Shown here in pieces: positions 11,922 through 59,462 of a stretch of 64,000 nucleotides of DNA. The number at the start of each line of letters is the position of its first letter. Within the stretch, counting starts at the first letter, position 1. Under the pieces are notes generated by a model, which was given only the letters and a program-made list of their open reading frames with translations, was not told the origin of the DNA and did no database searches. Both the position numbers and the translations under genes were made by a program. Source of the DNA: Eledone cirrhosa (Eukaryota); the NCBI GenBank assembly GCA_964016885.1, contig OZ024751.1, positions 5,518,001 to 5,582,000 on the forward strand. Direction: 5' to 3'.

Positions 11922-11966
11922 TATATATATATATATGCAGACACACACAAGGCTATATATACTTTT

Positions 11967-12150: not shown

Positions 12151-12386
12151 ATTGTTGCTATAAAATTCACCTCCTACATATACTTTTATATATATATACA
12201 GATTATAGCAAACATCACGGGCGATCTATCTCAAAATTATTTTTTAAAAGCATTAGAAATGCGTAACCGGTAAAACTTAAAACCAAAACTGAATACTAAC
12301 CAATACTATTACTAATTTTTACTTATTGCTAATTAAACTATTTTTCACTGGGAACAATTTGTCAGCATTCTCTTTTCCTTTTACCA

Positions 12387-12950: not shown

Positions 12951-13031
<81 letters not shown>

Positions 13032-13201
13032 CTGTGTGTGTGTCTGCCTGTGTGTATGTGTCTGTGTTTATGTGTAATAATTTACAAATGTAATTTATAC
13101 CGAATTATTACGATTCACATTCAGCAAAGTATATATAGCTGTGTGTGTGTCTGCATATATATATATATATATATATACAGACACACACACAGTTATATAT
13201 A

Positions 13202-13295
<94 letters not shown>

Positions 13296-13424
13296 AAGTT
13301 ATATTTAAAATTGTTGGGTTACAACTAGTAAATATTTATAACTGATATAAAAGCACTCGACAAATATTTGGAGTATATTTACAATATTAAATAAATGGAA
13401 AACTATATTTATAAAACCATATTT

Positions 13425-13490
13425 ATTTCATTATATATATTTCGGGGATATCATATTAACAATATGCTATGCCTTCATCAGACAAAATAC
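13425..13490 (-). ncRNA. Hammerhead ribozyme in inverted pLTR
   Basis: TCATCAG 13475-13481 and TTTCG 13440-13444. Confidence 0.75.
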
Positions 13491-13614
13491 AATATAAACA
13501 GTTTTATAGATAAATATATTCGACATACCGTAATAAACATCAACTTCATTTGGAGAGGTTTACGCTAGCAGTGAAAATACAAAGATTAAAAATACAAAGA
13601 TTAAAAATAAGCCC

Positions 13615-14839
13615 CCTTGTGGGCTTATTTTTAATCAATTCGCTACATAGGAAAATACCCGGTACTACCGGAGGTTTATATAGGGATGACATGCTTTTAC
13701 TTATTAATAATAATAACCCTGAACTAAATAGAAAATGTAAACAAATTACAAAATTTTTTAATTACTTTAACCTTAAAATAGAAATTGAGAACAACCATAG
13801 AATAGTCAATTTCCTAGATATAACATTAAATCTCAACACATGTCTCCACTATCCTTTTCACAAGTTGAATGAAAACTTAAACTATGTCAACTTTAACTCT
13901 AACCACCCCAGATCTGTCAAAAACACTATAGTAAACTCAGTCCAAAAACGTATCTCTAGGATCTCGTCGAATAGAAAGATTTTTGACGAAAAGGCCCAAT
14001 ACTATAATGATGCACTAGCTAAGGCAGGGTATGCTGATAAGATTGTGTACATAGATAATGATAGACAAACTAAACAAAGTAACAACTTTTTTAATTACGG
14101 CAACAACATTAACAACTATAATAGAAAGCATTACAATAATTCCAAAGGACAAAAAAGAAATAGAACTAGGAACATAATTTGGTTTGCCCCCCCTTTCTCA
14201 CTAAACATTAAAACCCACATCGCTAAATTATTTTTCAAAGCTCTTGATAATCGCTTCCCTAGAACACATAGGTATCACTCAATCTTCAATAGGCATACAA
14301 TTAAATTAACCTACTCATCCACCAAAAATTTAGCACAAAATATTAATAGAATAAATAATAGGAACTTAAAACCTACTGATAATAGCATAAATAATATACA
14401 AGTTAACAAATGTAACTGTAGAGATAGATCTAAATGTCCGTTAAATAACAACTGCTTAGTTAAAAATATAGTATACAATTGTAATATTAATACTGACTCT
14501 AATTCTTTTAACTACGTCGGTTCCACATCGACGGAATTTAAACTTCGCTATAATAACCACAAGAATTCTTTCACAAATCCAAATAAAAAATCTTCAACGG
14601 CACTATCAGGGGTACTCTGGCAACTTAAGCTAGATAACGTTAGATATTCGACGGCTTGGAATATAGTCTCAAGAGGGATTCCTTTTAATTCATCCTCTGA
14701 GACATGTGACCTCTGCGCAGAGGAGATATTCTTTATACTAAAATCTAAAAATTCCCTTAACCTACGGACAAATTTATTCAGTTGTTGCAAGCATAGATTA
14801 AACTCAACGTTTAAATATAAATTTAAATTTAAAATGTAG
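13615..14839 (+). pseudogene. PLE ORF: C-terminal reverse transcriptase (GLYRDD) + CxCx5Cx5C linker + GIY-YIG endonuclease, uninterrupted but N-terminally truncated
   Basis: LVGLFL..GLYRDD, VNFLDITLNL, YVNFNSNHP, IIWFAPPF, CNCRDRSKCPLNNNC, NIVY..YVGST..FKLRYNNH, CDLC.EE. The first ~20 aa of the listed ORF derive from the inverted arm and junction. Confidence 0.93.
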
Positions 14840-15887
14840 TATATTTAGTTTGATTTATATTTATATGAGAACTAGCCGATAAATCTTTTGATTCCTAAAT
14901 CTTTGATTCCCTCTTTTTACTCTTTTTATTGTTTAATTTATTTAATTTATTTTTATTTTTATCTAAACATTCCTCATGAAAAATTAAGCTACCCTAAAAG
15001 CCGATGCTCCAAATTTTTTGAATTAACCTTACACTAGATAAACTTCTATATTAAATATAGGAACATATGTAGACATTATTGGACATCATAATCTTTTTTG
15101 CGATATTCTTTGCTAGATGTGATTTGATAGATAATTTTTGGCTTTGTCTTGTAATGAACTTGGCAATATATTGTCAATTAACTTTGAAGGGTTGTTCTTT
15201 GTGGTTTATTTTCATTTTTATTTTTATTTTTATCTTTATTCTTTTAGTATTGTAGTATTCTATAATATTTTTATTTTTATTTTAATTTTATTTTTAATAT
15301 TTTTATATGTAAATTTTTAATACGTAATATTTTTTAATACGTATTTTTAATATGCAATATTTTTATTATGTAATATTCTTTCGTAATATCTTTTTAGTTT
15401 TCTATTCTATATTTTTATATATTTTTACTTATTATTATTATTATTATTGTTATCTTTGTTTATAATATAATATATATTTTCGATTAGTATATTGAAATCT
15501 GCTCTCTATTTCTGCTTGATAGATAATCTTGTAGAGTAATCGCAAGAATAATAATATGCTCAAATTTTTATACCACATTGAGAATGTTTTCCGGTAACTT
15601 AGAATTTGCGGAGTGAATCAGTTGGATTCACATTGATGTTTGTAGCTGTCACATAAACATATGAATTTTTTAAAACTAAACATAAGATAATGAATTTTCA
15701 CACATTGTGAATACTTGTTTCATTCAGGAATACTGATATTTACAGTATAGTGTAAGTTTTATAAATACTAATACATTAAAACATAGGGTTTTCTACGCCT
15801 CGAATATGTCTGGCTATTTTTAAATTTTTTCTCTCTCTATATCTCTCTATATCACTCTATATTTCTCCCTTACATTAATACTTGAGC

Positions 15888-15918
<31 letters not shown>

Positions 15919-16284
15919 ATGTATCATTGATACACTTACTCAAAATGACCTCCCACTACCTAATTTTCTATATATATATATGTATCTATCTCTATTTCCT
16001 CTCTCTCTCTATATATATATCTCTTTCTGTCTCTTTACATGAAGCTCTTCGCTTTATCTATTTTTCCATCTCTCTATTTTGTTCCATGCATTTCTTCTTT
16101 TTCTTTTTTCTTCTTTTTCTTTTTCTTCCTTCTCTTCGTTCTGTCTGTCTTTCTTTCTTTTTTCCCTCTTTTCTTTCTCTCTTTCTTTCTCTCTGTATTT
16201 TCACTGCTAGCGTAAACCTCTCCAAATGAAGTTGATGTTTATTACGGTATGTCGAATATATTTATCTATAAAACTGTTTATATT

Positions 16285-16350
16285 GTATTTTGTCTGATGA
16301 AGGCATAGCATATTGTTAATATGATATCCCCGAAATATATATAATGAAAT
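16285..16350 (+). ncRNA. Hammerhead ribozyme in 3' pLTR
   Basis: CTGATGA 16294-16300, stem II, CGAAA 16331-16335, palindromic TATATA, then AATAAA. Confidence 0.75.
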
Positions 16351-16389
16351 AAATATGGTTTTATAAATATAGTTTTCCATTTATTTAAT

Positions 16390-16502
<113 letters not shown>

Positions 16503-16554: not shown

Positions 16555-16725
16555 AAGTATATATAGCTGTGTGTGTGTCTGAATGTGTGTATGTGTCTGT
16601 GTTTATGTGTAATAATTCAAAAATGTAATTTATACCGAATTATTACGATTCACATTCACCAGTTTAGCGACCAGCTTAGATTACTGATTGATAGACAACT
16701 CCGGGCGACCGTTGAGTTAAATCTA
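16555..16725 (-). repeat. Inverted copy of 6783-6957
   Basis: Near-perfect reverse complement (GATAGACAACTCCGGGCGACCGTTGAGTTAAATCTA vs TAGATTTAACTCAACGGTCGCCCGGAGTTGTCTATC). Confidence 0.92.
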
Positions 16726-16738: not shown

Positions 16739-16778
<40 letters not shown>

Positions 16779-16781
16779 ATA

Positions 16782-16965
16782 ATAATTGTTTCTAATTTTG
16801 GCACAAGGCCAGCAATTAAAAAGTACATTACTGGTACTTTATTTTATCGTCCCCGTAAGGATGAAAGACAAAGTTGACCTCGGCGAGATTTGAAGTCAGA
16901 ATGGAAAGGGCCTTAACATTATGCGTCAATGCATGGCGTTCGACCCTCTACCGATACTGCCAATC
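16782..16965 (-). mobile_element. tRNA-derived Deu/Nin-core SINE
   Basis: Matches 765-936 and 26438-26620. Confidence 0.85.
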
Positions 16966-16998
16966 CAAATAATAATAAATGTGAAGACTAAAATCCAT

Positions 16999-18107: not shown

Positions 18108-18322
18108 AGTAATTGGCAGTAACGGTAGAGGGTCAGACGCCATGCTTTGACGCATAGAGTTACGGCCCTTGCCATTCTGAGGTCAAATCCCGTCGAGGTT
18201 AACTTTGCCTTTCATCCTTACGGGGTCGATAAAATAAAGTACTAGTCACGCACCGAGGTCAATTTAATCGACTTCCCCTTCCCCCAAATTACTGGCCTTG
18301 TGCCTATAAAAGAAACCATTAT
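18108..18322 (+). mobile_element. tRNA-derived Deu/Nin-core SINE (longer variant)
   Basis: A-box-like TGGCAGTAACGG, B-box-like GGTCAAATCC and core CTTTCATCCTTACGGGGTCGATAAAATAAAGTAC. Confidence 0.88.
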
Positions 18323-18509: not shown

Positions 18510-21500
18510 CATGGCTGAGTCACGACCCCCCCCCCCCCCCAGCGATATGACTGCTGTAGTGTGACAGCGGCGTAAAGGTTGAGAGGAGGGATACGGCTAA
18601 CACAGAAATTTATATAACAAATACTTTCGCAGCTACAGTAGCCAAGAGCCAAATGTTGTATGATTTCGATCTTACGGAAAAAAAAAACCGTTTGGCCCAA
18701 CCTGAAAAGTGTATAACAACAGAAAAAGGCTGGGCCAATTTAAACCTCCTGGCAGAGGTGATGGCAGCAAAGGAGAGGAGAACTTTAAAATATTGATGCA
18801 TTTCAGTGAAATCTTGAAAAGCCGAGAATGCCTCCGAAGTGCACGTACAGGCATCGATAACGACGAAATAGACCATATAACAAGGGCCAGACAGTTTGGG
18901 ACCATCTTCGTGCTATTCAAAACTGAGCCACTTGCTATAAAGCATTCTGTGGTCCCCTGCAAAACGGACCAAATAATGGTGTACCCATCCTACATGGGAA
19001 GGAGAACAGTAAGGGTCCGTGTTCCCAGGATTCCGCCAGGACTAGATTTATGGTGGCTCCTGGGATGCGTGGTGGTAGAGGGCCCTGACACCCTCCTTTA
19101 CATTAAATTTACAAAGAGAGAGAGAGAGAGACAGAGAGGGAGGGAGAGAGAGGTGGTCCGTGAGTGGTGACGGGTACGAATTCCAGGTAGTCACAGAGCA
19201 AAAGGCCGCATTGTTTAGTGTGTGGTGAAGCCACAGACCTGAGAGCCTTTTGCGGCCAATTGAAAATTGCAGGGGGCTGCAAATCTCCGTTGCTACCAAC
19301 AGGAGGAGGGATAAAACCAGCAGCAACAGAAAATGAAACAATACTATTAAGAACAATTAAATCCACCCAGGTTGTTGCTCAACCAAGTTCCCCCTCCCCC
19401 TCTTTCAAACACAAACACACACACACACCCGTAAACACCCCCACTCCCCTTTGACACAGTCCCCAGACACCAGTTCCTCCACTTCTCGGAGTGAAGATGA
19501 GGGGGAGCCCCCAAAACCAAAAAAGAAAGCACAAAAAAAGAAAAATCCAGCTCCACGCACAACAAGAAGCACACAAAACACCACACCCACAGCAACACCA
19601 ACTCCACAACCGCCAACAACACCGACACAAGTGCAAGTGATCCCAAACAAAAGAAAACACACGCAAACACCAACAACAACCGACACACCAAACTTCGTGT
19701 TATTAAGGAGGGCCAATAAACAACTAATGGCCCTTGTAATACAAAGTAAAGACATTGAGAAAGAGGGAGAGATCTTTTACCTCCGGGAGGTAACTAAACC
19801 TTTCCTCTCTTCTTTATCCTACCAGCATGGCCATATTAAGAGTAGGATGTCTAAATGTGCGTGGCATGGGGTCATCCTGGAAGAAGGGGAACCTGCTCAA
19901 TGACCCCCAGGTCACGAGAAATGGAAGTAATTGCCGTCAGCGAGACCAGGATTTCTGACACGCGCGCACTAGCCCACATTTTCGACGACTATCAGATCTT
20001 CACAATTGTTAGTCGGCCGGGAATGGGAGGTGGGGTGGCCGTGTTGTATAGGAAAGGCCTGGACCTCGAGGTAAGGTCGATCTTCCGGGATCCGGAGGGT
20101 AAGTTGGTGGTCCTAGACGTGAACAGTAGCGAAGGTGGTGCCTTTAGATTGGTGGCCGTCTACACCCCTTCCGGGGCAGGACGGCTTAATTTTTTAGATG
20201 CCTGGAAGCCTTTCTTGGTACGTCTCGCCCTTTACTGTTAGCGGGAGACTGGAACGGCATATTAGACGCACGCTGGGATTGTGTGGGAGTAGCTGATAGG
20301 AGCGGGGGATGCAAAATTCTCAAGTACCTAATCAGTCAGTTCCAACTGTCTGACAGGTACCGACTTGATTTCCCTAATGCGCCAGTGTGGACGTGAACAA
20401 ACCGTTTAGGGCCATCTAGATTGAACCTAGATAGGTTCCTAATTAGATTACTGAATAAGAATAGTATAGGGTATCCACGATTACATACGGTCGCCTATTC
20501 AGACCACTAGTTTGTGATCTGTATGGTCGACCTAGATAAGATGCGTAGGTTAGGACCTGGTTACTCAAAGCTGAACATATCGCTTCATGCTCGTAAGGCT
20601 TACAGGCCGGTTCAACAATTTAGTTAAGCAAAAGTTGACAGGGGGAGTCGTCAACAATAGATGGTGGGGGACTCTCAAAAGAGAGATTAGAGTAATATCG
20701 ATTGGGTTTAGCAAAGAAGTAGCGTTAGAGGAAAATAGAAAGGAGGGAGAGCTGGTAGATAAGTTAGATGAGGCTATTTGTAGGGGCATTGCAACTGACG
20801 TGCTAGCGGCGAGAATGGCATTAGATCATTTCTTCAATGTGAAACACGAAGGTTACATTGTCAGAGCTAAGGCGCGTGCTCTGAGAAACGAGGGAACCAA
20901 AGCTGTTCGATGGGCCCGCGTAGCGGAGGCGCAGCGAGATAATAAAATCACAATTCGGTCTTTGAAGGACCGAGACCGACACGAGCTTAACGATTCCAGG
21001 CGGATGTGTGAGGCCTTTCGCCAGCATTTTGCTCGGTTGTTCGGGGGAAATGGCGGGTCAGAGACGGTGGAAGATTTCAGTCCCTACCTCGAGGGGTTGC
21101 CGCAACTCTCGACGGCCGACGCTGAGCACTGCGAAAGGCCGATAACTTCAGCCGAAATTCAGGATGCCCTTGTTGGCTACACGAGGCGCAAGTCACCCGG
21201 TTTGGATGGTCTGTCCTACGAGCTTTACGTAAATATGCCAGACTTGTTCTCCAATCTCCTCGAAGCGCTCTACTGCAACTGGCAGCAGACCGGGAGTATT
21301 CCAAGTTCTGTGAGCCGAGGTGTAGTGACGCTGATAAGGAAAGACGAGAACAAGAGGGACACATTAGATAATTTTAGGCCCTTAACTCTGCTCAACACAC
21401 AGTTTAATATTTTGACCAAGGTGTTAGCGAAGTGGTTGGCACTTGTAGTCGAGGATTTGGTTGGAGGGCGCAAACTTGCGCAATCACAACCAGGTCCATA

Positions 21501-22830
21501 CACAACAACCTCCACCTGATGCGATACATCATAAAGACGGTAGGGTGTAAATCTGGCTTCGGTTGGGCTCTGAGCAATTTAGATCAATCGAAAGCATTCG
21601 ATAGGACCGACCATCGGTATCTGAAGGCTGTCCTCATGGCAGATGGCTTCGGCCCTGTCTTCAGAAGTTGGATCGCTGCAATGCACAGCGGCATCTGCTC
21701 GGTGGTCAAAGTTAATAGCCACCTCTCGGAACCGTTTCAGATCTCCCGATCGGTCCGTCAAGGGTGCCCTCTCTCCTCCCTTCTGTACGTATGGACTCTT
21801 GAGCCTTTACTGCGGAAGCTGGAGCTGTTGCAGGGCATCCCGCTCGAACCGGGACGCGGAAAGGCTGTGTCGGCTTATGCGGACGACATCACCGTGATAG
21901 TGTCGGACACCTCAGAAATCGAGGTGGTCGGCAACTTATTGGAGGAATATGAAAGGTTGACGGGAAAAGTGGGTGGGCTTGTAGCTCGGCACCTGGAGAG
22001 GCAAGTCCATGCCGTCCAACAGTTTTGCTGGGCGCTGGACAACAGACCAGTGAAGTTGCTCGGGATGTGGTTCGGGTCAGAACTCCTGCTGGATATGAAT
22101 TGCGACGAAGTAACGGCAGGGTAGCCAGTTTCACCCAGAAATGGGCTTTGGGGAAGCTATCACTGAAAGGTCGGGTGGAGGTGATGAACGCGTACATCGC
22201 GTCCGTCATCTACTACCACCTGACCGTCGTCCCTTGCCCCCGTTCGCGCCTCGCCAGCGTGCAACGGCTCCTCTTCTTATGGAGGGAACAGGTTCCGTTG
22301 GTGAGGCAGTCCATCTGCTGCCAGCACCCTCTATATGGAGGGCTAGGCATGCCGTGGCTAATGATGCGCAGCTGAGGCTGTGGAATCTTCAGATATTCCG
22401 CCTAAACGGCGAACAGTTGTGGTCGCCGTTTGTCAGACGAGCATGTTCGCAGCCCTTCTTTTTGACTGAGCTGCAGTCCTGGAGCAAGAAGAGATCGAAA
22501 CTGGGTGACTGGCATCTGGAATGTTTCCAGGCACTCACTTCCCTCTACCAGGCGGGCAATGCGATCAGTGGAACTTCCACTCCGGTGTTCTATAGAGGAT
22601 TAATAGTGGGCAAGTGCGACGACGCACTCGGAAGGCTCTGGGCGTCGGTGAAGTCGAACTAACCAGTCTGTTCCGGAGGACTTTCGAGCCGGGGACGATG
22701 GATAACTTCCAAAAATCTTGGCAGTGCAACCGAGGGGGGAGGGGGTTCATGATAAACTCTACAGGCACGAAAGTAGTGTCCGACGAACCTTCCCGAGATG
22801 CACGCAGAGCGACGAAACCGTTCTGCACGC
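18510..22830 (+). mobile_element. Decayed L1-clade (Tx1-like) non-LTR retrotransposon
   Basis: GC-richer block with a broken ORF1-like region (18709-19800, basic and Pro/Thr-rich) followed by APE+RT ORF2. Boundaries approximate. Confidence 0.85.
19827..22700 (+). pseudogene. ORF2: apurinic endonuclease + reverse transcriptase, with multiple frameshifts and stops
   Basis: MAILRVGCLNVRG (19827), VIAVSETR, GGGVAVL, LAGDWN, YSDH, KSPGLDGLSYELY, NFRPLTLLN, LDQSKAFDR, SVRQGCPLS, YADD, GGLGMP. Confidence 0.92.
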
Positions 22831-24932: not shown

Positions 24933-25395
24933 AAATTCTATTTAAATTGTTGGGATACAACAATCAAATATTTTTATAACTGATATAAAGCACTCAACAA
25001 ACATTTGGAGTAAAAATACGATATTAACAAATGGAAACTATATTTATAAAACCATATTTATTTCATTATACATATTTCAATGACACCAATTTAAATTATG
25101 GTGTGCTTTCATCAGATAAAATATAATATAGATCAGTTTTATAAATAAATATTGACATACCCTTAAAGAATGCATTAATACTAATAATAATATAATTAAG
25201 CTTCAACTCCACTATCCGGGAGCTTCCAACAGTAATAGTTGCATTCTTTAAGGGTATGTCAATATTTATTTATAAAACTGATCTATATTATATTTTATCT
25301 GATGAAAGCACACCATAATTTAAATTGGTGTCATTGAAATATGTATAATGAAATAAATATGGTTTTATAAATATAGTTTCCATTTGTTAATATCG

Positions 25396-25397
<2 letters not shown>
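24930..25397. mobile_element. Palindromic PLE pLTR with two HHRs (shared arms 25017-25175 / 25240-25397; tail 24930-25016)
   Basis: TCATCAG 25109-25115 (-), CTGATGA 25299-25305 and GAAA 25336-25339 (+). Arms appear near-identical. Confidence 0.9.
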
Positions 25398-25476
<79 letters not shown>

Positions 25477-26390: not shown

Positions 26391-26437
26391 AGATTCACTA
26401 ATAAGCGCCAATGTGTCAATTTAAATGCGTGGTGCTA

Positions 26438-26620
26438 AATAATTGTTTCTACTTTTGGCACAAGGCCAGCAATTACCCAGTAAATTACTGGTACTTTATT
26501 TTATCGACCCCGTAAGGATGAAAGGCAAAGTTAACCTCGGCGGGATTTGAACTCAGAATGGCAAGGGCCGTAACTCTATACGTCAAAGCATGGCGTCCGA
26601 CCCTCTACCGATACTGCCAA
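26438..26620 (-). mobile_element. tRNA-derived Deu/Nin-core SINE
   Basis: Well-preserved copy with B-box GAGTTCAAATCC on the minus strand. Confidence 0.9.
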
Positions 26621-26724
26621 TGAGAGAAGGCCCGTCATGAACTTTCTAGCTGCTTTGAGGTGAGCATTACACTGTATAATCGATAATCATATGAACTCTT
26701 TCAATTTCATTTCTCATTAATCTT

Positions 26725-27426: not shown

Positions 27427-28514
27427 GGAAAGCCTTCTCAAAACCGTGTTTCCCAGGAGTGTATAGAGTGCCTCTGTAGGGTTCTCTGTAAGTCTGTTCT
27501 TCATATGAACGTAGGGGGAGATTTGATTGTCATCTCCAAGGTGTCAAACTACCACGTAGGTATATGTTTATATTGTTTCTACTGATATTGCATTTGAGAG
27601 ATCACACATAGTTATAGGTGTGAACTTTGTGCCACATTGTACTTGATATGTGTGTAAATATATATCTATGATTTCACATTTTTACATATCTAGAGAACTG
27701 ACGCGTCTATCTATTGTAAGTGTGTATATCTCTAATTTACCACAGACGAAATATTTTTTGCTAGAAGGTATCCCAGATAATCGCCATCGTTAAAAATCAC
27801 TTGATTAAAGACTTGAAATATGAATATATATTGAAATTAATGCAAATATATTTAAATAGACATTTCAATTTAAATGCTGTGTCTCATTTGTCGATAAATA
27901 TATCTTTGATATAATAACTTGATATAATCAACGTCTCTACATTCTCTGTGTCTTTGTATTTATTGATCCCAACATTAACGGTTGCGTCAAATATACTTCT
28001 CTGATGAGATATAATGAGACTGGAATACATCTGTTGCTTTGTTCATTTATATATAAAGCCCAAAGCAACTAAAATTGTATTGTACTTATTGTTCAAAAAC
28101 ACCTACCATTAATTTTATTTGCATCATCTCACAGTCATTTTATTATAATAAATATTTTGAATAATCCCATTTGGTCGACAGTTTTCACGTATATATACCT
28201 CTACACGAGTATAGATACAGGTATAGTTACGTTCATACAGAGTGTACAACTCATACTGAGTTTGGTTCAATAACGGTATTCTGAGTAGAATATCGCGAGA
28301 AAACCTAAATCATCAGGAGACTTTCTCGGTTCAGAAATAGAATTCAAGACAAGAATTCCCGGCCGTCCGCTGTTAGTGAAGATTTCGAATGAAACAACTG
28401 TCACGTGACAACTACCTGGCAGGAGGATTAGCATAGTGGACTATGGCAGGCAACATGCTACTAGAAAGTAGTTCGATTCCGCCAAATATTCACTGTATCA
28501 TAAGGGAGTGTATT

Positions 28515-28700
28515 GGATTGGCAGTATCGGTAGAGGGTCGGACGCCATGCTTTGACGCATAGAGTTACGGTCTTTGCCATTCTGAGTTCAAATCCCACCG
28601 ATGTTAACTTTGCCTCTCATCCTTACGGGGTCGATAAAATAAAGTACCAGTAATGCACTGGGTAATTGCTGGCCTTGTGCCAAAAAGTAGAAACAATTAT
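28515..28700 (+). mobile_element. tRNA-derived Deu/Nin-core SINE
   Basis: Full-length match to the family. Confidence 0.9.
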
Positions 28701-28711
28701 ATATTAAATGA

Positions 28712-31641: not shown

Positions 31642-32159
31642 TTATGAATGTATGTGTGTGTAAAAGGAATGATATGGATGGTGAAAAAACTATAGGAAAA
31701 CGGTGGCTGGCATTTCATTGGCTATGCTGTGTGTGAGTGTATGTGTGAATGTATGTATGTGTATGTGTGTATTTGTCTGAATGTATGTGTGTTTGTGTGA
31801 ATGTATGTATGTGTTTGTATGAATGTGTTTGTATGAATGTATTTGTATTTGTGTGAATGTATGTCTGTGAGTGTTTATTTTTGTAAGTGTGTCTGTGTTT
31901 GCACGTTTATATTTATATAAGCATACATATAAATGTATACATATGCACATACACATACGCACATACATATGCACATTCACGTTAGTGTGTTGAAAAAATC
32001 CTAGTAAAAATGAAATGCAATGTCGTGGTGGGAGATATTTGAACTTAGAAGGTACAGATATAGTTGTATATTGGCAAACATTTTAATCGATACTGCCGTA
32101 CCGATTATGTAAAATCCGTAGCATTTACATATTATAAAAAATACACTTCATTAAAAAAA

Positions 32160-32352
32160 ATAATTGTTTCTACTTTTGGCACAAGACAAGCAATTATCCC
32201 AGTGTATAAGTGGAACTTTATTTTATCGACCCCGTAAGGTTGAAATGCAAAGTTAACCTCAGCGGGATTTGAACCTAGACCATAAAGGATCGTAACTCTA
32301 TGCTGAAAAGCATGGCGTCCAACCTTCTACCGATACTGCCATTCCACCGCCT
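32160..32352 (-). mobile_element. tRNA-derived Deu/Nin-core SINE
   Basis: Family match including the GGCGGTGGAATGGCAG start. Confidence 0.85.
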
Positions 32353-39525: not shown

Positions 39526-39709
39526 TCGCTTGACTGCGAATGATTTATAATACAGAGTAAATTTGGGGGAAGAGGATTAATCGTCCATGTTACGAGGAGT
39601 CAGAAAAACTTATGGAAAATAACGAATCCTTGACTTTAAATATTCATAGATATGCAAATTATTACATTTACTGTTTTGGTTTTACTATTGTTGGTTTATC
39701 ATAATTACC

Positions 39710-40108
39710 ATTGGTCTAAGGCTAAAAGCGTTGGTCTAAGGCTTAAACTGTTGGTCTATGGCTTAAGCTGCTGGTCTAAGACTTAAATTGTTGGTCTAAG
39801 GCTTAAGCTGTTAGTCTAAGGCTTAAACTGTTGGTTTAAAGCTTAATGTGTTGGTCAAAGGCTTAAGCTGTTGGTCTAAGGCTTAAACTATTGGTCAAAG
39901 GCTTAAACTATTGGTCAAAGGCTTAAACTATTGGTCAAAGGCTTAAACCATTGGTCAAACGCTTAAACTGTTGGTCTAACGCTTACACTATTGGTCAAAG
40001 GCTTAAACTGTTGATCTAAGATTTAAACTGTTTGTCTAGGGCTTAAACTGTTGGTCTACGGCTTAAACTGTTGGTCTACGACTTAAACTGCTGGTCTAAG
40101 GCTTAAAC
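39710..40108. repeat. 20-bp minisatellite TTGGTC(T/A)AAGGCTTAAACTG, about 20 copies
   Basis: Direct reading. Head-to-tail with no spacers. Confidence 0.95.
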
Positions 40109-42774: not shown

Positions 42775-45660
<2,886 letters not shown>

Positions 45661-48015: not shown

Positions 48016-49074
48016 GAATGAGAAATTAGAATGATTGAAGGGACGGGCGGGGTGGAGTGGAATTGGAAAAAAATGATTTTAGAGAAAAATAACAGGTCCA
48101 TTCATATTGCCATCGCTTGGAAAACTGTTGATGTTGGCGTTTTGTGTATAAAATATTTTTTTTTAGGAAAGTGGATGATGGAGTGCCTCCACATACAAAT
48201 GTATATTTATATATATGTGTGTGATTGTGTGTGTGTGTGATTGTGTGTGTGTGTGATTGTGTGTGTGTGTGATTGTGTGTGTGTGTGTGTGTGTGTAGCA
48301 AAATCCGTTTGAAAATAAAAAATGAAGACCAAATAGCCTTAAATCGGGAAAAGAACAGAAATATATTATTTATTCATATACGGAACAAAAACGCTACCCA
48401 TGGTTTCAAGAAGCAATATTTACCGTACCTCCAGAATACAAGATGCATCAAATTTGTGATCTTTCTTCAGGCGCTTATACGCTTTTATAAGATACTCTTA
48501 AAAGTAAAGTGTGTTAAAGACACTAGTTTGCGAAAAAAACAAACGTATTATACAAAAGAAAGGGAAATACCTACAAGATGTAAATTTGAAATTTGAAAGC
48601 ATACAAGTGTTTGTGTTGGTATACTATAGCAGAAGTATTATGTTATGTGGTGGAATGTAATATAGAAAGTGTGTTGTATTACATCCAACGTTAATTCAAG
48701 CTGTTCTTGTAGGATTAAAGGGAACTGCTCTCTCCAACAGAAATGTAATATCAAATCAATTGTGTATGAGGCAGATATCACACACAACTATATAGAAAGT
48801 GAGAGATAGGTTGATATGGTGCAAGGTCGTTTAAACAACGTTTTGACATTCATATAAACTACTTCAGAAATCCTGATATGAAGACCAGTACAGTCCTAGT
48901 GAAAAAGGCCTGGAAATTAAAGGAAAAACAAGTCCTACATAAGATTAATTATTCTTAAAGTTACTAATAAACATAAATATAATGATGCTATATTGATACC
49001 ACGTCCCTACTCCTTACACACACACACACACACACAAACATACACACACACACACACACACATATATATAGTTA

Positions 49075-50678
49075 AATCTTAGAGGCGGGGGAAAAAAGTG
49101 CATAGGAAAAGAGTTCCCAGGGTGTGGGGGAGTGGTGGAAAGACATTTAAAAGAAAGGAGGGGGGGGGAAACGATTTTTTTAGAAGTACAAATAAAATAA
49201 AAATCGTTATAGGTAATCCAGTTAGAGGTTGTGAGTACCCTGCGTCGTGGATAGTTTTAACGTACGGCTTTGTTTGACTCAACAAGAGGTTTCCATAGTT
49301 AGGCACCGAGGTCGCGGTAATTCCTATGTAGGTTATACTTGGAGTAATAATAGTGAAAGTTTGAAGAGTAACATGGTCGGTTGTACAACAGGGGGCTTTA
49401 TTTCAAGTATTAACAATTGTTTCATTGATCAGGTGAGTCTAGAGGGCGCTAATCGCTCGAAGTTGCGTCACTCGATCTCAAATACATTATTCACCTCTGA
49501 TCAAATCCCCAGAATACAAATAATTCATACATGGCGTGGTATATATAGAGAAATAGCGTAGAATTAAAACAATAACATCAATAATAAAATATATATGATA
49601 AATAGGTAAAGAAGTTACAGATGTAAAAAGTAAAAAGTAAGAGAAAAGATACAATAAAAAAGTAAGAAAATGGAAAAATAATAAAAATATAAAGAAATAA
49701 AGATAAATGAGAGTATATAAGTACAGAATATGATAGTGGTGGTGGTGAGTAAGTGTCCGTCAAAGAATGCTGTGGTGGATGTAGGGCTAACACAAAAAGC
49801 CATATTCGAAACATACATAGAGGTAGTAACAAATGACATTGAAGAAAAATCAATAAATCAGAAACTAAGTGGGAGGTAGTAGTATGAGACCCAAGGGTTA
49901 CGGGTGGATGGTGAAGGGGAGTTTTTGCCAAGTGTGTGTGGTAAATGTTTTTCTGATTGTCTTGTCTTAATGGCGTTGATGTAGTTTCAGGGAGAGAGGG
50001 TGAAGGAGATGTTAAGAGATTTATGATCTAGTGACCAGTGGGCTGTTTGACAGCTAATAGTGGTTTGATGGTATGTATTCCGTACGTTAAAATCCAGGTG
50101 GTTCAGTTCTAATTTTGGGATTGCTGGGTCGAATCACGGTGGTTTGAAATTTGTGAACTTGGTAGCTATTTTGTGCGTACAGAAAATTGATCTTTCTATT
50201 TTGCTGTTAAGCAGCATCTTATCGTACCTTAAAATATGGAATAGCTCCATATGGCAAAGTCTGCAGTGGGACATCCCATTGTGGTAGGCCCTTGCTCACG
50301 ATAATTTTGACCAGCTAATCCTATATTCCTGGTTTGTGTTGTTAAGCTGCCACATTTTATTGGTGAGCGTTGTAGAGTTCTCCAGTCTACGGTTCTTCAT
50401 GGAGTGTCTGTGAAGGTACCACTTTTTTAACTCCCCAGGAGTGGGACCTATGTAGTGCCAAGTAAATTTGCCTGAATTTATAGTACACAGGTACATCATA
50501 CTTGAATCCAGGCATCTATTTTGTAGCGGGCACTTATCCGGTAGGTGGCAGTTACAGTTGGAGGCTTTTCTGTGTGCAGGTTCTCCGTTGCGATTTTGCA
50601 TGTTGTTATGAGTGGGTTGAGATGTAGTCCTATTAATGTTTTGTTGTGAGGCGCCCTGATGTGTGTGGTGTCCCTACT

Positions 50679-50680
<2 letters not shown>
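49075..50680 (-). mobile_element. 5'-truncated PLE related to 42775-45103
   Basis: 49200-49500 is colinear with 42800-43090, and a GIY-YIG remnant is present. Confidence 0.85.
50134..50601 (-). pseudogene. GIY-YIG endonuclease remnant with one in-frame stop
   Basis: CNCHLPDKCPLQNRC..WHYIG..ISWSKLS*ARAYHNGMSHCRLC..IERSIFCTHKIATKFTNFKPP. Confidence 0.88.
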
Positions 50681-50719
<39 letters not shown>

Positions 50720-50722
<3 letters not shown>

Positions 50723-51112
50723 TATGTATACGTACATACATATATGTATACATACGTACAGTAGTATGTATATATGTATACATAAGTGCACACATATATA
50801 TATGTACGTATGGATTCACCGAACATTTATTATAATGCTCGGTGTGTTTGTAAACAAACAGCGTTCCTTTGTCAGTGTTGAACAAATGAGCAACGATGGT
50901 TGCTAGACACTGTACGGCTTAAATCGGGATGTTTGTTTACAAACACACCGAGCATTATAATAAATGTTCGGTGAATCCATACGTACATATATATATATGT
51001 GTGCATGTATGTATATATATATACATACTACTGTACGTCTGTATACATACTTATATTTAAGTAACAGCTGTACTAAGTGTGAGAAATGAAATTTTGTTTC
51101 ATTTTTTCCGTT
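50720..51112. mobile_element. Palindromic pLTR end (arms ~50720-50860 / 50930-51052; tail to 51112)
   Basis: GGATTCACCGAACATTTATTATAATGCTCGGTGTGTTTGTAAACAAACA and its exact reverse complement. Confidence 0.85.
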
Positions 51113-51126
51113 TATATATATATATA

Positions 51127-51730
<604 letters not shown>

Positions 51731-52708
51731 TGTATATATATATGTATATATATATATAAATAAATAAATATATATATACATATACATATATATATATGTA
51801 TATATATACCGGTTATATATAAATATATATATAAGTATTGAAGTTTCCGTTGAAAAAGTCAGAGGAATGAAGAGCGCTAAATATAAATATTTATTGTAAA
51901 ATAAACAATACTATATAATTACCTCATTACCGAGGTTTCTCGAATAAGACGGATACAAGAAACGTCCGCATTCATTCGTCAGACAAGGCAATTTAAACAT
52001 AGTCAGATATTTGAAATATCTCCCCAAGAAAGGCTAAAAAAGTTTAACGGGCAAAAAATAAATAGAAGTAATAATACAAGAAATGTTTAAAAAATAAAAA
52101 TAAAGAAACATAGTAAGGGGATGTGTGTAAATGTGTGTATATGCACATACATATGTACATATGTACATGTGTGTGTATGTACAACTGCATGAGTATAGTG
52201 AAGAAATGTGTGCGTAAGTACATACATGAGGGCAAACATATTAGTGTATGTGTGACCACAAATGCATATATATATGTTGAAAATAGAAATTGTAAGATAA
52301 TGAAGGTAGCGTACATACAGGCTCAGGGACTAAGGGCTGAAATATATACACATAAAGGATAAAAGGACGCACGCATATAAACATACACACACGCGCAACC
52401 ACATACATGTATGTGATATATAAGGGGAAGCGAATGTATAAAGACAACGCAGTGTCAGGCGGAAGGTCGATACAAATATAAAATATGATGAATAAATGAA
52501 AAAATATATAAGATAAGAATAAAAAATTAAGGCAAAGAGAAAGTAAGAGGGAGGGGTTGTAATATATAAAGCAACACTAGAAAAATAAATAAAAAGTAGA
52601 AAACATGCATACACGCGAACAAGCTCATACACGCATACATATATAAATAAATATACATACAGACAAAAACACGTGTACAAAAGAATACATACACATACAC
52701 ACATACAT

Positions 52709-52754
<46 letters not shown>

Positions 52755-52755
<1 letters not shown>

Positions 52756-53213
52756 ACATATTAATAAATGGAAACTATATTTATAAAACCATAATTATTT
52801 TATTATATATATTTCAAGGGCAACCAAGCCAATCTTGGTGCGCTTTCATCAAATAAAATACAAAATTTGTTTTATAAATAGTGACAAAACCATGGAAAAC
52901 AACATTGACGGTGAACATTCACTGGAGAGTCATATATATATATAGTCACTATCCACCGAATTTTCAAGCGTCAAGGTTGTTTTCCATGGTTATGTCACTA
53001 TTTATAAAACAAATTTTGTATTTTATCTGATGAAAGCGCACCAAGATTGGCTTGGTTGCCCTTGAAATATATATAATAAAATAATTATGGTTTTATAAAT
53101 ATAGTTTCCCTTTATTAATATATTGAATATTTACTCCAGTAAACTGTTGAGTCCTCTATAGTAGTTATAAACTTTTAAGTTTGTTGGAATCCCAACAAAT
53201 TAAATATAACTCC

Positions 53214-53215
<2 letters not shown>
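52755..53215. mobile_element. Nested palindromic pLTR (arms 52758-52910 / 52969-53123; tail to 53215)
   Basis: CTGATGA at 53027-53033. Family of 13291/24930/55389. Confidence 0.88.
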
Positions 53216-53257
<42 letters not shown>

Positions 53258-53750
53258 CATGGACATCTATTCACACGCACGCACGCGACCATATATATAT
53301 ACATTAGTATATATATATGTGAAAACACATGTACATACACGCACACACACACACACATATGCACACATACACGCACGCATACGAATGCCTTCGTATATAT
53401 AGAGATACACGTATACACACATATACACACATACGCATACATACCTATATATATAAAAATAACAACAACCGTTTGAATAAATCGGTACAAAATATAAGTA
53501 AGTATACATACATAAAAACGGCTGAGGGACAACGGAAAATATCTGGAGTTAAAAACACAACTGGTAGTGAAAGAAAAAGGGGAAGTAAAATAAATGTAAA
53601 TAATGTATAATTGTTAAGATATAAAGTTAATGAATCAAATAGAGGGTGGGAGGGGGGATTCACTAGTGGATGTAAAGTAAAAATAAAAGATATGTAAAAC
53701 TGATAGAAGTCTATAAAGAAGGTTAGATAAGGAAATTGAAGAACAAGAGT

Positions 53751-53999
53751 TTATGGAGGATAAGTGTCTGAAAGTGAGTTTAGTTTATATGAGTTGGAAA
53801 GCAAGTGTGATTTCACGCGTGGGTAACTGGTGAAAATTTCTGGTTTTGCATTTAGGCAGGTTTTTAGTGATTTTAGGTTCTGTAAAATCCAATATTTTTC
53901 ACTTATGCAGAGTGCGCATCTACTTGTTCCTCTTGCGTATTCTTTAGATTGGTTCAAAATTGACCAATCTAATTTATACTGGATACCTTGGTCCTTCAA
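53751..53999 (-). pseudogene. GIY-YIG C-terminal fragment (inverted twin at 54058-54303)
   Basis: WDLKDQGIQYKLDWSIL..CALCISEKYWIL..LNAKPEIF. Confidence 0.85.
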
Positions 54000-54731
54000 A
54001 TCCCATATTTTACTTATCTTTTATTTTTTTATACATTTCTTGTATTATTACTTTTATATGGGATTTGAAGGACCAAGGTATCCAGTATAAATTAGATTGG
54101 TCAATTTTGAACCAACCTAAAGAACACGCAAGAGGAACAAGAAGATGCGCACTCTGCATAATTGGATTCTACAGAACCTTAAATCACCAAAACCCTGCCT
54201 AAATGCAAACACAGAAATGTTCACCAGTTGCCCACACATGAAATCACATTTGCTTTCCAGCTCATATAAACTTAACTCACTTTCAGACACTTATCCTCCA
54301 TAAACTCTTGTTCTTCAATTTCCTTAACTTACCTTCTTTATAGAATTCTCAATCAGTTTTACTAATCTTTTATTTTTACTTTACATCCATCTATTTGATT
54401 CATTAACTTTATATCTTAACAATTATACATTATTTACATTTATTTTACTTCCCCTTTTTCTTTTACTACCAGACATCACATGTCAGTTGTGTTTTTAACT
54501 CCAGATATTTTCCGTTGTGCCTCAGCCGTTTTTATGTATGTATACTTGCTTATATTTTGTACCCATTTATTCAAACGGTTGTTTTTTTTTATATATGTAT
54601 ATATGCGTATGTGTGTATATGTGTGTATACGTGTGTATGCAATTATGTACATGTGTTTTCACATATATATATATATATATAGTAATATATATATATGTGG
54701 TCGCGTGCGTGCGTGTGAATAGATGTGCATG

Positions 54732-54765
<34 letters not shown>

Positions 54766-54772
<7 letters not shown>

Positions 54773-55300
54773 ATACTTTGGGAGGGTCATGTTGCCAATA
54801 AGAAACACACGTACCAATTGCTTTCACTCCATTTATATTATAAATTAAATTAATACATTTAAGAATTTATAAATTTTCGGTTGGTTGGTTGGTTCCACAA
54901 CCGGACGGTTGTTCATATATTGTTGTTCATATAGCTGTGCTACGCCATCTTGTTCTGTCCTACGCCATCTTATTTAAAAAAAAAAGAAGATGGCGTCGGA
55001 CGGAACAAATGAGAGGTACAAAACAAAGAGAAGAATCCCCAGTCACTAAAGAGGTCACAGAATGTGTGACGAAAGAACTTTGACAATATATGAATAACCG
55101 TCCTGTTGCGGAACCAACCAACCAACCAACCGGAAATTTATAAATTCTTAAATTTATTAATTTAATTTATAATAAATTGGAGTTGAAGCAATTGGTGCAT
55201 GTGTTTCTTATTGGCAACATGATCCTCTCAAAGCATAACAATATCGGTTTCAACACACGTTTTTAGATAAAGAATCTTGCTAAACAATTTCAGAAACGAA
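54766..55300. mobile_element. Nested palindromic element (arms 54766-54922 / 55084-55242; extension to 55300)
   Basis: Inverted arms with (GGTT)n/(AACC)n. Family of 9533-9712. Confidence 0.8.
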
Positions 55301-55388
<88 letters not shown>

Positions 55389-55391
<3 letters not shown>

Positions 55392-56183
55392 AAAGTTCTA
55401 TTTAAAATTGTTGGGATACAACAAGTAAATATTTTTATAACTGATACAAAGCACTCGACAAGTATTTGGAGTAAATATACGATATTAATAAATGGAAACT
55501 ATATTTATAAAACCATATTTATTTCATTATACATATTTCAGGGATACCAAATTAAATTATGGTATGCCTTCATCAGACAAAATACAATATATAACAGTTT
55601 TACAAATAAGCTTTGACGTACCCTATTAAAATGCAACCATTGTTTTTGGAAGCCATCCGGATAGTGATTTGTTTATATTACTTTAATAAATCATAGTGTT
55701 AAGGACAATTAGAAAAAGACGGAGAGAAAGAAAAAGACGGAGGGAAAGAAAAAACGTGGAGAAATATCGGAGAGAGAGAGATGCATGGAGAAAAAAGAAA
55801 GAGATAAGTAAAGACAGGAGGAAAGGAAGAAAGAAGAAAAAAGGAAGAAATAAGAAAAACAGAGGAAAGCAACAGAGAGACATTAAGTCAACAGATAGGT
55901 AGAAAAACTCAAGAGAGAGAAATATTATATATAGAGAGAGGGAGATTATGAAAACTTTACGTCATGTCATATTAAGTTGAGTTAACAATTCATATGAAAT
56001 GAATAATAAAAATATAAATATTAATATTCATGAATGGGACATAAATATATAATATGAGAAATTAAACATTGTTTAATAATGACTATATGTTTAGTTTAAA
56101 CCTTGAGATCAATATACCAAAATTTGGGTTTAATCTCCAAAATGTACATATTGCTAGAGAATCAGTATCTCAGGCAAAGACAC

Positions 56184-56233
<50 letters not shown>

Positions 56234-56527
56234 GCACGTCCTGAAAATATCGTTTTTTTCTTTCTCTCCGTCTTTTTCTTTCTCTCCGTCTTTTTCTAAT
56301 TGTCCTTAACACTATGATTTATTAAAGTAATATAAACAAATCACTATCCGGATGCCTTCCAAAAGCAATGGTTGCATTTTAATAGGGTACGTCAAAGCTT
56401 ATTTGTAAAACTGTTATATATTGTATTTTGTCTGATGAAGGCATACCATAATTTAATTTGGTATCCCTGAAATATGTATAATGAAATAAATATGGTTTTA
56501 TAAATATAGTTTCCATTTATTAATATC

Positions 56528-56530
<3 letters not shown>
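55389..56530. mobile_element. Nested palindromic PLE end (shared arms 55478-55757 / 56250-56530; tail 55389-55477)
   Basis: TCATCAG 55570-55576 (-), CTGATGA 56432-56438 and GAAA 56469-56472 (+). Confidence 0.9.
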
Positions 56531-56593
<63 letters not shown>

Positions 56594-57398
56594 ATATGTA
56601 TGTATGTGTGTATGTGTATGTATGCTTTTGTGCACGTGTTTTTGTCTGTATATATATTTATATATATGCATGTATGTATGAACTTGTTCACGTGTATGCA
56701 TGTTTTCTACTTTTTATTTAATTTTTCTAGTGTTGCTTTATATATTACAACCCCTCCTACATACTTTCTCTTTGCCTTACTTTTTTATTCTTATCTTATA
56801 TATTATTTCATTTATTCATCATATTTTATATTTGTATCGACCTTCCGCCTGACACTGCGTTGTCTTTATACACTCCCTTCCCTGTATATATCACATACAT
56901 GTATGTGGTTGCGCGTGTGTATATGTTTTTATGCGTGCGTCCTTTTATCCTTTATGTGTATATATTTCAGCCCTTAGTCCCTGAGTCTGTATGTACGCTA
57001 CCTTCATTATCTTACAATTTCTATTTTCAACATATATATAGTATTTGTGGTCACACATACACTAATATGTTTGCCCTCACTGATTTCACTATACACATGC
57101 AGTTGTATATACACACACATGTACATATGTACATATGTATGTGCATATACACACATTTAAACACATCCCCATACTATATTTCATTATTTTTATTTTTTAT
57201 ACATTTCTTGTATTATTACTTTTATTTATTTTTTGCCCGTTAAACTTTTTTAGCCTTTCTTGGGGAGATTTTTCAAATATCTGACTATGTTTAAATTGCC
57301 TTGTCTGACGAACGAATGCGGACGTTGCTTGTATCTGTCTTATTCGGGAAACCTCTGGTAATGAGATAATTATATTGTATTGTTTATTATACATTAAG

Positions 57399-57433
<35 letters not shown>

Positions 57434-57443
57434 ATATATATAT

Positions 57444-58010
57444 GAAAAGTGTAATTTACTACACAAAACGAAGGTTATAGAGAAAATTGAGGTTGATAAT
57501 GGCACATGGAATATATAAGAGACAGAATACTTTTTTGTGAAAACCATATCATTTTATAAGGTAAGGAAATAATAAAGGGTATAAAAAATGACCGCTTTCG
57601 ATGGGTCTGCAAAAGCCATCTTTTCAAATGTTGATTAATATTAAGAAAAATTAATAATAAGAAGAGTTAAAATTTGAGATTTGAAAATTCAAGTATAAAA
57701 TTCATTGTGGGATTTCATAGTAGTTTTCATCTTGGTAGCCGCAAGTTGACTGCTGTGTGCCTTTCTGGTTCGTCATTCACTACCAGAATTCACTACTTGA
57801 ATTTTCAAATCTCAAATTTTAACTCTTCTTATTATTATTTTTTCTTAATATTAATCAACATTTGAAAAGATGGCTTTTGCAGACCCATCGAAACCGGTCA
57901 TTTTTTATACCCTTTATTATTTCGTTACCTTATAAAATTATATGTTTTTTCACAAAAAAGTATTCTGTCTCTTATATATTCCATGTGCCATTACCAACCT
58001 CAATTTTCTC
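57444..58010. mobile_element. Palindromic pLTR (arms 57480-57695 / 57793-58010) with U3-A8 HHRs
   Basis: TTGAAAA-GATGG..CCATC-GAAA-CCG-GTC at 57862-57899, with an inverted twin at 57588-57627. Confidence 0.88.
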
Positions 58011-58044
58011 TCTCTATATATATATTTATATATATATATATATA

Positions 58045-58160
58045 TATTTAATGTATAATAAACAATACAATATAATTACCTTATTACCAGAGGTTTCCCG
58101 AATAAGACGGATACAAGGAACGTCCGCATTTACTCGTCAGACAAGGCAATTTAAACATTG
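58045..58160 (-). repeat. Inverted copy of 57287-57400 (HHR-bearing end)
   Basis: TCGTCAG 58134-58140 and TTTC 58094-58097. Confidence 0.85.
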
Positions 58161-58267
58161 TGTATACTCTGGTATACTTTGTGTATACTCTGGGAATGTA
58201 TCTTACATTTCCCATGGAGTGCGCTGAGATACAACCGGTTCTGTCAACCCATATTATATATATATAT

Positions 58268-58947: not shown

Positions 58948-59007
<60 letters not shown>

Positions 59008-59017
59008 TATATATATA

Positions 59018-59114
<97 letters not shown>

Positions 59115-59116
<2 letters not shown>

Positions 59117-59457
59117 TGATGGTAGCTAAGATGCTTCCATGGCGGTATACCGGTTGAGCACTCTATGCTCTTACAGAGCAGAGTATGACAGAATAGAAAA
59201 CAAAAATCAGTGATGCATCTGAACTCAATTTATTGTGTGTTACATTTGTTTCCCCGGCGGACAGCTCGAGACGCGATCATTTTGGGATACACCAGTGAGA
59301 GAATATGCTCCGAAATCATTAGACGTGTCCGTCAAACCTGCGGCTCCAGAATCTCAGACAGACCCACACAATGATCGCGTCTCGAGCAGTCCGCCGGGGA
59401 AACAATTGTAACACACAATAAATTGAGTTCAGATGCATCACTGATTTTTCGTTTTCT

Positions 59458-59462
<5 letters not shown>
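59115..59462. mobile_element. Palindromic pLTR (arms 59190-59288 / 59362-59462; tail 59115-59189)
   Basis: Inverted arms, a GAAACAATTGTA HHR half with degenerate core, and AATAAA. Confidence 0.8.

Follow-up and report, generated by a model that had tools for sequence, protein, structure and literature searches.

The 64,000-nucleotide stretch of the Eledone cirrhosa genome analysed here (assembly GCA_964016885.1, contig OZ024751.1, positions 5,518,001 to 5,582,000; the window) contains, at 51835-57397, one head-to-head insertion of a 5′-truncated Penelope-like element (PLE) with Hydra-clade motifs. In the interpretation that we favour, with a probability of about 0.68, the two head-to-head copies go back to a single insertion event in a TA repeat, and the TA tracts in the 3′ untranslated regions (UTRs) of these copies were afterwards struck by three elements of other families. 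The window is A+T-rich, with an animal-type composition (34% G+C) and 72 merged TA tracts, and ARAGORN finds no tRNA gene in it. Its repeat structure was mapped by pairwise alignments and by self-BLAST of the repeat-masked sequence, the unmasked search being swamped by TA.

The two outer arms pair 51891-52712 with 56574-57397 and 53258-54008 with 54056-54731, and are colinear across the sequences that interrupt them. With inserts subtracted and TA included they measure 1712 and 1582 bp. They diverge by 5.2%, equally on either side of the internal TA tract (25/481 and 30/574 in the masked comparison, p=1.0). The tract of the left arm (52713-53257) contains the inverted pair P1, and the matching tract of the right arm (54732-56573) contains two others, P2 and P3 (Table 1). 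The first-pass annotation, made from the sequence by a model, had described a head-to-head PLE with an internal TA tract in its 3′ UTR and with palindromes nested in each arm; the masked self-BLAST and the alignments recover four nested or adjacent inverted pairs at the places it gave, and removal of the inserts leaves the outer arms colinear. Its span, 51835-58160, holds for a 5.5-kb element but not beyond, since 57399-58254 lies outside and consists of P4 and a third short copy in the right flanking TA. The annotation did not include a tail on the left arm (51835-51890, about 56-57 nt to the first microsatellite), for which the right arm has 0 nt. The 3′ UTR of the outer element is about 1.3 kb long. 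The third copy of its 3′ end is about equally distant from both outer arms (private differences: left 5, right 3, third copy 4), and its 5′ junction (58162-58254) carries short repeated motifs, possibly from stuttered synthesis. No source for the outer tail or for 58162-58254 was found within the window.

Table 1. Coordinates of the outer element, its nested pairs and its right flank.
Feature	Position	Strand	Details
Tail of outer left arm, 3′ extension without right-arm counterpart, then TA-rich flank	51835-51890	-	Alignment
Outer left arm, distal 3′ UTR and pseudo-LTR; hammerhead-like core at 51982	51891-52712	-	Helices I/II/III of 12/11/3 bp by own descriptor
Left internal TA tract, outer half	52713-52753		
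P1, nested head-to-head pair; arms 52754-52930 (-) and 52948-53125 (+); TA at junction	52754-53215		88-nt right tail; hammerhead-like cores at 52852 and 53027
Left internal TA tract, inner half	53217-53257		
Outer left arm, inner segment: proximal 3′ UTR and C-terminal endonuclease codons with CxxC in an open frame (53754-54008)	53258-54008	-	Profile E 5e-16
Junction spacer	54009-54055	+	54025-54057 equals UTR 57193-57225; ATAT self-complementary at arm ends
Outer right arm, inner segment: C-terminal endonuclease codons with CxxC and CxH, frameshifted by a 10-bp deletion, and proximal 3′ UTR	54056-54731	+	Profile E 1.6e-7 and 1.2e-3 in two frames
Right internal TA tract, inner part	54732-54768		
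P2, nested head-to-head pair; arms 54769-54923 and 55083-55240	54769-55300		60-nt right tail; no hammerhead core recognised
TA tract between P2 and P3 tails	55301-55388		
P3, nested head-to-head pair; shared arms 55480-55754 and 56254-56528	55389-56528		88-nt left tail; left arm longer; hammerhead-like cores at 55576 and 56432
Right internal TA tract, outer part	56529-56573		
Outer right arm, distal 3′ UTR and pseudo-LTR, untailed; hammerhead-like core at 57305	56574-57397	+	
Right flanking TA tract of outer element	57399-57443		
P4, separate head-to-head pair in flanking TA	57445-58014		34-nt left tail; U3-A8 variant hammerhead-like core at 57862 (+)
Third copy of outer element's 3′ end, 114 bp, untailed	58048-58161	-	

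Palindromes and TA tracts are hard to assemble (PMC8557442), which is the argument for an artefact of assembly or of fold-back reads. However, 5% of sites differ between the arms, at least a dozen indels separate them, only one of them has a tail and their inserts are not the same, and these inserts match families elsewhere in the window; an artefact is therefore the least credible explanation considered here, and the earlier suggestion that the arms have aged separately and are not an assembly mirror is borne out.

The assignment to the Hydra clade relies on the endonuclease, on the motifs of related copies and on the ends of the element. A GIY-YIG C-terminus had been placed at the centre of the palindrome: the last 85 or so endonuclease codons are found there, the endonuclease ends of both arms reading outwards from the centre, but the GIY and YIG motifs themselves are absent. 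Both arms match neighbouring open reading frames (ORFs) by BLASTP (E values of 7e-8 and 2e-8), and both match positions 630-702 of a 706-position protein profile built from 39 full-length relatives of the neighbouring ORF 13514-14836, the match of the right arm being split by the 10-bp deletion (E values in Table 1). Among the 39 relatives, DKT/S is present in 36, CxxC..E in 36, CxH in 36, CxCx4-6C in 28 and RW[KR] in 21, and DKG in none. These motifs are the marks of the Hydra clade, for almost all families of which hammerheads and (TA)n insertion are reported (PMC8557442, section 11). In the outer element itself CALC occurs in both arms, and CPH in the right arm is replaced by YPR at the same place in the left. 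The RWK and DKT region and the CxCx5C linker are cut off by the truncation; the linker is present in four neighbours, and a YRDD reverse transcriptase (RT) motif together with the endonuclease is found in the neighbour 13514-14836, which is of a different family. Searched against 1504 six-frame peptides of the window, the profile finds five further Hydra-type remnants (9697, 13514, 43960, 48666-48955 and 50137-50673).

Both outer ends abut TA-rich tracts, and some 95 nt separate each untailed end from a hammerhead-like motif. In both outer arms the pseudo-LTR (long terminal repeat) carries a type I hammerhead-like motif, a putative ribozyme called by our own relaxed descriptor (core plus helices I-III). 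A strict scan found 11 sites in the window, compared with 0-4 in 20 shuffles, and missed P1 and P3, the cores of which were recovered by relaxed scans. Folded together by RNAalifold, three copies adopt three helices, of which helix II is displaced into the core. By its testable features the outer element would thus be a Hydra-clade PLE and likely a member of a described TA-targeting family.

Other assignments were considered and rejected. The Naiad clade has an N-terminal endonuclease and no canonical hammerhead, whereas the outer element has its endonuclease at the C-terminus, with the 3′ UTR and its hammerhead-like motif downstream; P2, in which no ORF and no hammerhead are recognised, could still be a Naiad element. 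Neptune and Nematis elements have a CX2-5CxxC linker and CCHH, in place of which the neighbours have CxCx5C and CxxC/CxH. A miniature inverted-repeat transposable element (MITE) or foldback DNA transposon is at odds with the asymmetric, one-tailed ends, with arm lengths that vary within a family and with arms that are the 3′ ends of an ORF-bearing retroelement.

The centre of the palindrome is a copy of the element's own UTR, as had been proposed, although the boundaries differ from those first given. The arms were said to meet at 54005/54058, but their innermost shared base is 54008/54056; and the 50-bp centre 54006-54057, equated with UTR 57185-57222, matches exactly over 33 nt (54025-54057 with 57193-57225). 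The gapped match, 54005-54057 with 57176-57225, has a score of 80. Compared with the whole window, none of 30 shuffled centres fell outside the range of 32-45, and no unrelated tile exceeded 41. Over its first 11-15 nt the centre can be read in two ways, as an imperfect copy of the UTR or as part of the left arm's own frame. The template jump read from this centre stands, whether into the element's UTR or into a DNA copy of that UTR.

The same centre bears on a serial origin, in which an old palindrome (51835-52712/56574-57397) with a central TA tract would have taken up four unrelated palindromes, 53258-54731 among them, in the manner of SaTar arrays. TA-linked chains are indeed common here, 10 of the 72 tracts carrying element ends on both sides, and the pair 51128-51731 has a TA centre. 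However, the inner pair has neither hammerhead nor tail while the outer ends have them, its centre carries 33 nt of the outer pair, the divergence of the two pairs is equal, and the inner pair supplies an ORF end in the orientation that the outer hammerheads require. We regard this history as very improbable.

The three inserts belong to two families other than that of their host, and the sole same-family copy sits in the flank, so that seeding crosses families. The family of P1 and P3 also includes 13296-16392 and 24933-25398; P2 groups with 9534-9713 and would be a PLE by its architecture. The U3-A8 covariation of the P4 core has been reported for Schistosoma PLEs (PMC4209133). No source for the spacers of P2 and P4 or for the P4 arms was found within the window. 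The expectation that nested elements are younger than their host holds for P3, the youngest insert (1.1%, 3/266; p=0.002), and none is significantly older; P1, by contrast, is similar to the host (5.5%, 9/165, compared with 55/1055; p=0.85), and P2 is nominally older. Over its outer 141 sites P1 differs by 2.8% (4/141), in a stretch chosen after the alignment had been viewed.

Divergence between arms could serve as a clock. Within palindromes of the P1/P3 family the arms differ by 0, 0, 0 and 2.4%, far below the 4.0-18.6% of all 32 between-locus pairs, and therefore the arms start nearly identical or conversion keeps them so. In the coding part, the outer arms are separated by 12 nonsynonymous and 4 synonymous differences (pN/pS 0.79). 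These agree with neutrality (p=0.76) and reject an omega of 0.1 (p=1e-4), a pattern more in keeping with copies that decayed once inserted than with descent from two active donors.

The ends of the palindromes in the window follow a simple rule. Of 22 candidate pairs viewed, six were dropped by eye and one (9534-9713) was added, leaving 17 pairs, of which 15 have one tailed and one untailed arm, one is symmetric and one (28269/29104) is unresolved. In the 15 pairs the untailed arm ends at a microsatellite and the tailed arm extends further by 34-165 nt. Discordance in 15 of the 16 resolved pairs exceeds the half, at most, that is expected if the ends are chosen independently (p=3e-4; 14/16 and p=0.002 before one pair, N, was resolved). 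In addition, the tailed arm is shorter in three pairs (13296-16392, 24933-25398 and 9534-9713) and longer in two; in those three, therefore, neither arm contains, or is a DNA copy of, the other. The protein of the Poseidon PLE is a predicted dimer that cleaves and extends both strands and starts at two RNA sites which define the tail (PMC11167929). Because of the one-tail rule, the arms without containment and this two-strand activity, two coordinated cDNAs are favoured, with priming on both strands from one RNA.

Fold-back is the alternative that these counts address. It supposes that the tailed left arm was target-primed and that its cDNA, or else an antisense template that primed itself, then served to make the right arm and spacer, self-priming having been proposed for rotifer Penelope elements (PMC3846280). 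It would account for the common base at which both outer arms stop, for a spacer in the orientation of the right arm and for self-complementary junctions (ATAT here, CTAG at 45010 and a 10-bp palindrome at 3311). Yet it cannot yield the three pairs with a shorter tailed arm and more 5′ sequence in the untailed arm, and it requires a separate rule to halt the copy exactly at the untailed end. We consider it unlikely.

Coordinated two-strand priming could proceed as follows. The GIY-YIG endonuclease would nick both strands of a (TA)n target. Two reverse transcriptases, acting on the same RNA, would then begin at two fixed start sites 56 nt apart, as the tail rule and the in vitro work on Poseidon suggest; one start would give the tailed arm and the other the untailed arm, both copying inwards. 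Both syntheses would halt at the same point of the endonuclease region, where the junction is seen; one strand may have used a 2-nt microhomology to jump back into the UTR, some 170 nt short of the 3′ end, and copied 33-50 nt there, and the two cDNA ends may have been joined through short microhomology, A/T-rich or self-complementary. The UTR TA tract is present twice, as such a process would leave it. To judge from the divergences, the arms would then have decayed neutrally to 5.2%, P1 entering the left tract and P2 the right, and P3 would have followed in one of the two tracts into which P2 had divided the latter. Such an internal tract would be an ordinary extra target, and clustering would likely follow from such tracts and from the splitting of one tract into two by each insertion. 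In P1 (52931-52947) and in 51293-51565, (TA)n stands at the junction itself, and internal TA may also act as a self-complementary joint between the two cDNA ends.

A broader generalization can be put forward tentatively, as somewhat less probable than its opposite: that Hydra-type PLEs integrate as an obligate two-headed unit, in which one RNA and two reverse transcriptases fixed to two start sites and strands produce a palindrome that is born identical and has exactly one tail. The arms would then date insertions as LTRs do, the UTR TA tract would be doubled, and tract splitting would lead to positive feedback and to nested, datable stacks.

Several observations weigh against the favoured interpretation. 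Rfam, over 49-60 kb, reports no hammerhead family and no match above the gathering score; the three copies given to RNAalifold show no compensatory change inside the ribozyme; and Pfam finds no domain in three Hydra-type ORFs or in six full-length relatives. The six pairs set aside ahead of the tail count (95/950, 670/1133, 6850/13062, 16830/18112, 26436/28517 and 40695/40942) were removed by eye, as dispersed SINE-like (short interspersed element) copies or unclear composites. Poseidon belongs to another clade, and its start site in vitro did not differ between strands (PMC11167929). In the outer element the tailed arm contains the whole untailed arm and the spacer, so fold-back is possible there. 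An omega of 0.3 between the outer arms is not rejected (p=0.07), and gene conversion between arms could mimic identity at birth. Finally, only one of the three inserts, P3, is demonstrably younger than the host, the arms of P2 diverging by 8.1% (11/136; confidence interval 4.1-14%) compared with 5.2%.

This last figure also supports a different history of P2, in which the donor already carried it, both arms received a copy, and slippage between its flanking TA tracts later removed the one on the left. Palindromes between direct repeats are deletion-prone, and P2 remains nominally above its host outside CpG sites (6.9% compared with 4.7%). However, the difference in divergence is not significant (p=0.16), masked self-BLAST detects no P2 remnant in the left arm, and a clean deletion is required; we judge this history improbable.

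TA targeting is evident across the window. Eighteen of 24 hammerhead-like cores lie at most 250 nt 5′ of a TA tract, compared with 27% of random positions (p=1e-6). Thirty-six of the 72 TA tracts abut an element end, a count made with a library of the window's own element ends in which self-matches count by construction and for which 16 of 300 random windows passed the same score. Against this background the proposal that UTR tracts form a self-amplifying niche is not established: among ORF-bearing copies with an internal UTR tract of at least 12 bp, those of the two outer arms are occupied and those at 43574-43606 and 15969-15981 are empty, and 2/4 is no enrichment over 36/72; nor is any of the three inserts of the host's own family. 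The ORF-bearing copies 9727-11480 and 49190-50680 have no internal UTR tract of this length.

These tracts also bear on the possibility that the donor UTR had a short TA run only, and that the long tracts arose by or after the nested insertions, with no ready-made target. Short TA sites expand after insertion of maize TAFTA (PMC5907723), the tract of 13296-16392 is only 13 bp long, and two ORF-bearing copies have none. On the other hand, both arms were struck at the same position despite other short TA runs nearby, the element 42776-45103 has an empty UTR TA tract of 32 bp pure TA (47 bp with interruptions), and an internal TA-rich stretch is common to two unlinked copies of another family. 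A short-run donor is rather unlikely, though a little less so than fold-back; a ready-made tract in the UTR of the inserted element is preferred.

Counted by hand, nine insertions joined by TA make up the chain at 49190-58254, and three of these are nested. In a toy model of clustering, chains of at least nine arose in none of 20,000 runs with fixed sites, in 0.6-2.8% with tract splitting and in 3-10% with extra internal tracts, which raise the odds about fourfold; its inputs (35-45 founder tracts, 30-32 insertions) are guesses, and as the window was picked because of this cluster, its outcome is suggestive only. Positive feedback from TA insertion is plausible, and serial insertion in flanking TA builds clusters too. 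A second TA-linked chain, of about six element ends, lies at 9400-12200 and includes the 1.75-kb Hydra-type copy 9727-11480, the hammerhead core of which, at 11431, is altered by one base.

Other elements in the window include a young Hydra-type element at 13296-16392, with a 441-codon open frame (YRDD RT motif, thumb, CxCx5C linker and endonuclease), arms that differ at 1 of 203 sites, a short tailed and a long untailed arm, and a 15-bp tandem repeat at the junction. It is flanked by a 96-bp direct repeat, 95% identical (13031-13126 and 16566-16661), with TA-/TG-rich spacers; a further inverted copy lies at 6781-6955, and the arrangement may reflect a large duplication or separate insertions. 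The related Hydra-type copies 42776-45103 and 49190-50680 match at 69% over the endonuclease; the first has the empty UTR tract mentioned above and a 165-nt tail, and the second, without a tract, has TA directly next to its 5′ end. Members of a SINE-like family of 190 bp, dispersed in both orientations and with identities of 79-96%, occur at 762-936, 16777-16968, 18112-18253, 26436-26621, 28513-28706 and 32146-32346; the family may resemble octopus SINEs. A frameshifted remnant of the long interspersed element (LINE) type lies at 20575-22662 (+), with a Pfam RVT_1 match in 21408-22121 (E value of 4e-14). A mirror microsatellite, (CA)n(TA)n(TG)n, forms a 170-bp inverted repeat at 58949-59118 and adjoins the tail of the palindrome 59116-59462, and a 20-bp minisatellite of about 20 copies occupies 39707-40108.

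The locus is mainly a clean example of a known element type and is explained by known biology: element type, inverted truncated copies, one-sided tails and TA targeting are already published. It also gives evidence on how PLEs form inverted structures and tails, for any assembly can be surveyed for the one-tail rule and for arm pairs without containment, and such counts distinguish two-strand priming from fold-back. If the arms are identical at birth, they would date PLE insertions from within, as the paired LTRs do for LTR elements, and nested stacks would put this to the test. Such 3′ ends resemble MITEs or microRNA hairpins to annotation tools; the Rfam output in 49-60 kb consists almost only of sub-threshold microRNA matches. 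A literature search, with subscription papers, Repbase and most of the PMC8557442 supplement outside its scope, returned nothing on arm-to-arm dating of PLEs, on a link between tailed and untailed arms or on insertions nested in the TA tracts of UTRs; the word 'nested' does not occur in the main text of PMC8557442, and neither a preprint linking animal retrozymes to PLEs nor an Octopus vulgaris repeat annotation bears on nesting in the parts available.

Among known systems, the outer element most resembles the Hydra clade of PLEs with a C-terminal endonuclease (EN+), such as Hydra-1_Obim and Penelope-13_HM (PMC8557442), the supplement of which lists Hydra-type elements in Octopus bimaculoides, cnidarians, a sea cucumber, a copepod and a hemichordate. 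The clade as described there shares CxxC and CxH around the conserved endonuclease E and N, the CxCx5C linker (here in neighbours), a hammerhead near the 3′ end and (TA)n insertion; Penelope-13_HM likewise has a 5′-truncated inverted copy at its 5′ end, and a tail at one end only is a feature of PLEs in general (PMC8557442). In contrast to that account, the 3′ UTR of the Eledone element extends over about 1.3 kb and includes an internal TA tract, both arms are cut at the same base, inserts are nested at the mirror site, and tails in the window measure 34-165 nt rather than 30-40.

Poseidon PAc of Anolis carolinensis (PMC11167929) is alike in the cleavage and extension of both strands, in the two RT starts that define the tail, in a pseudo-LTR hammerhead and in an A/T-rich target. 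It differs in clade, in targeting ATT rather than (TA)n and in the tandem rather than head-to-head arrangement that is stressed, and its start site is not coupled to strand in vitro. Penelope elements of Adineta vaga (PMC3846280) share head-to-head inverted structures, junction palindromes and template jumps, and one of them is secondarily inserted into a simple A/T-rich segment of another; there, however, self-priming on an antisense template is proposed, and the target segment is asparagine-coding and not a UTR TA tract. The SaTar arrays of Mutator-like elements (MULEs) in guayule and rice (PMC5907723) are also mixed-family clusters joined by (TA)n through microsatellite targeting, but these are DNA transposons with true terminal inverted repeats and are never nested as described, whereas in the Eledone element the internal tract permits nesting.

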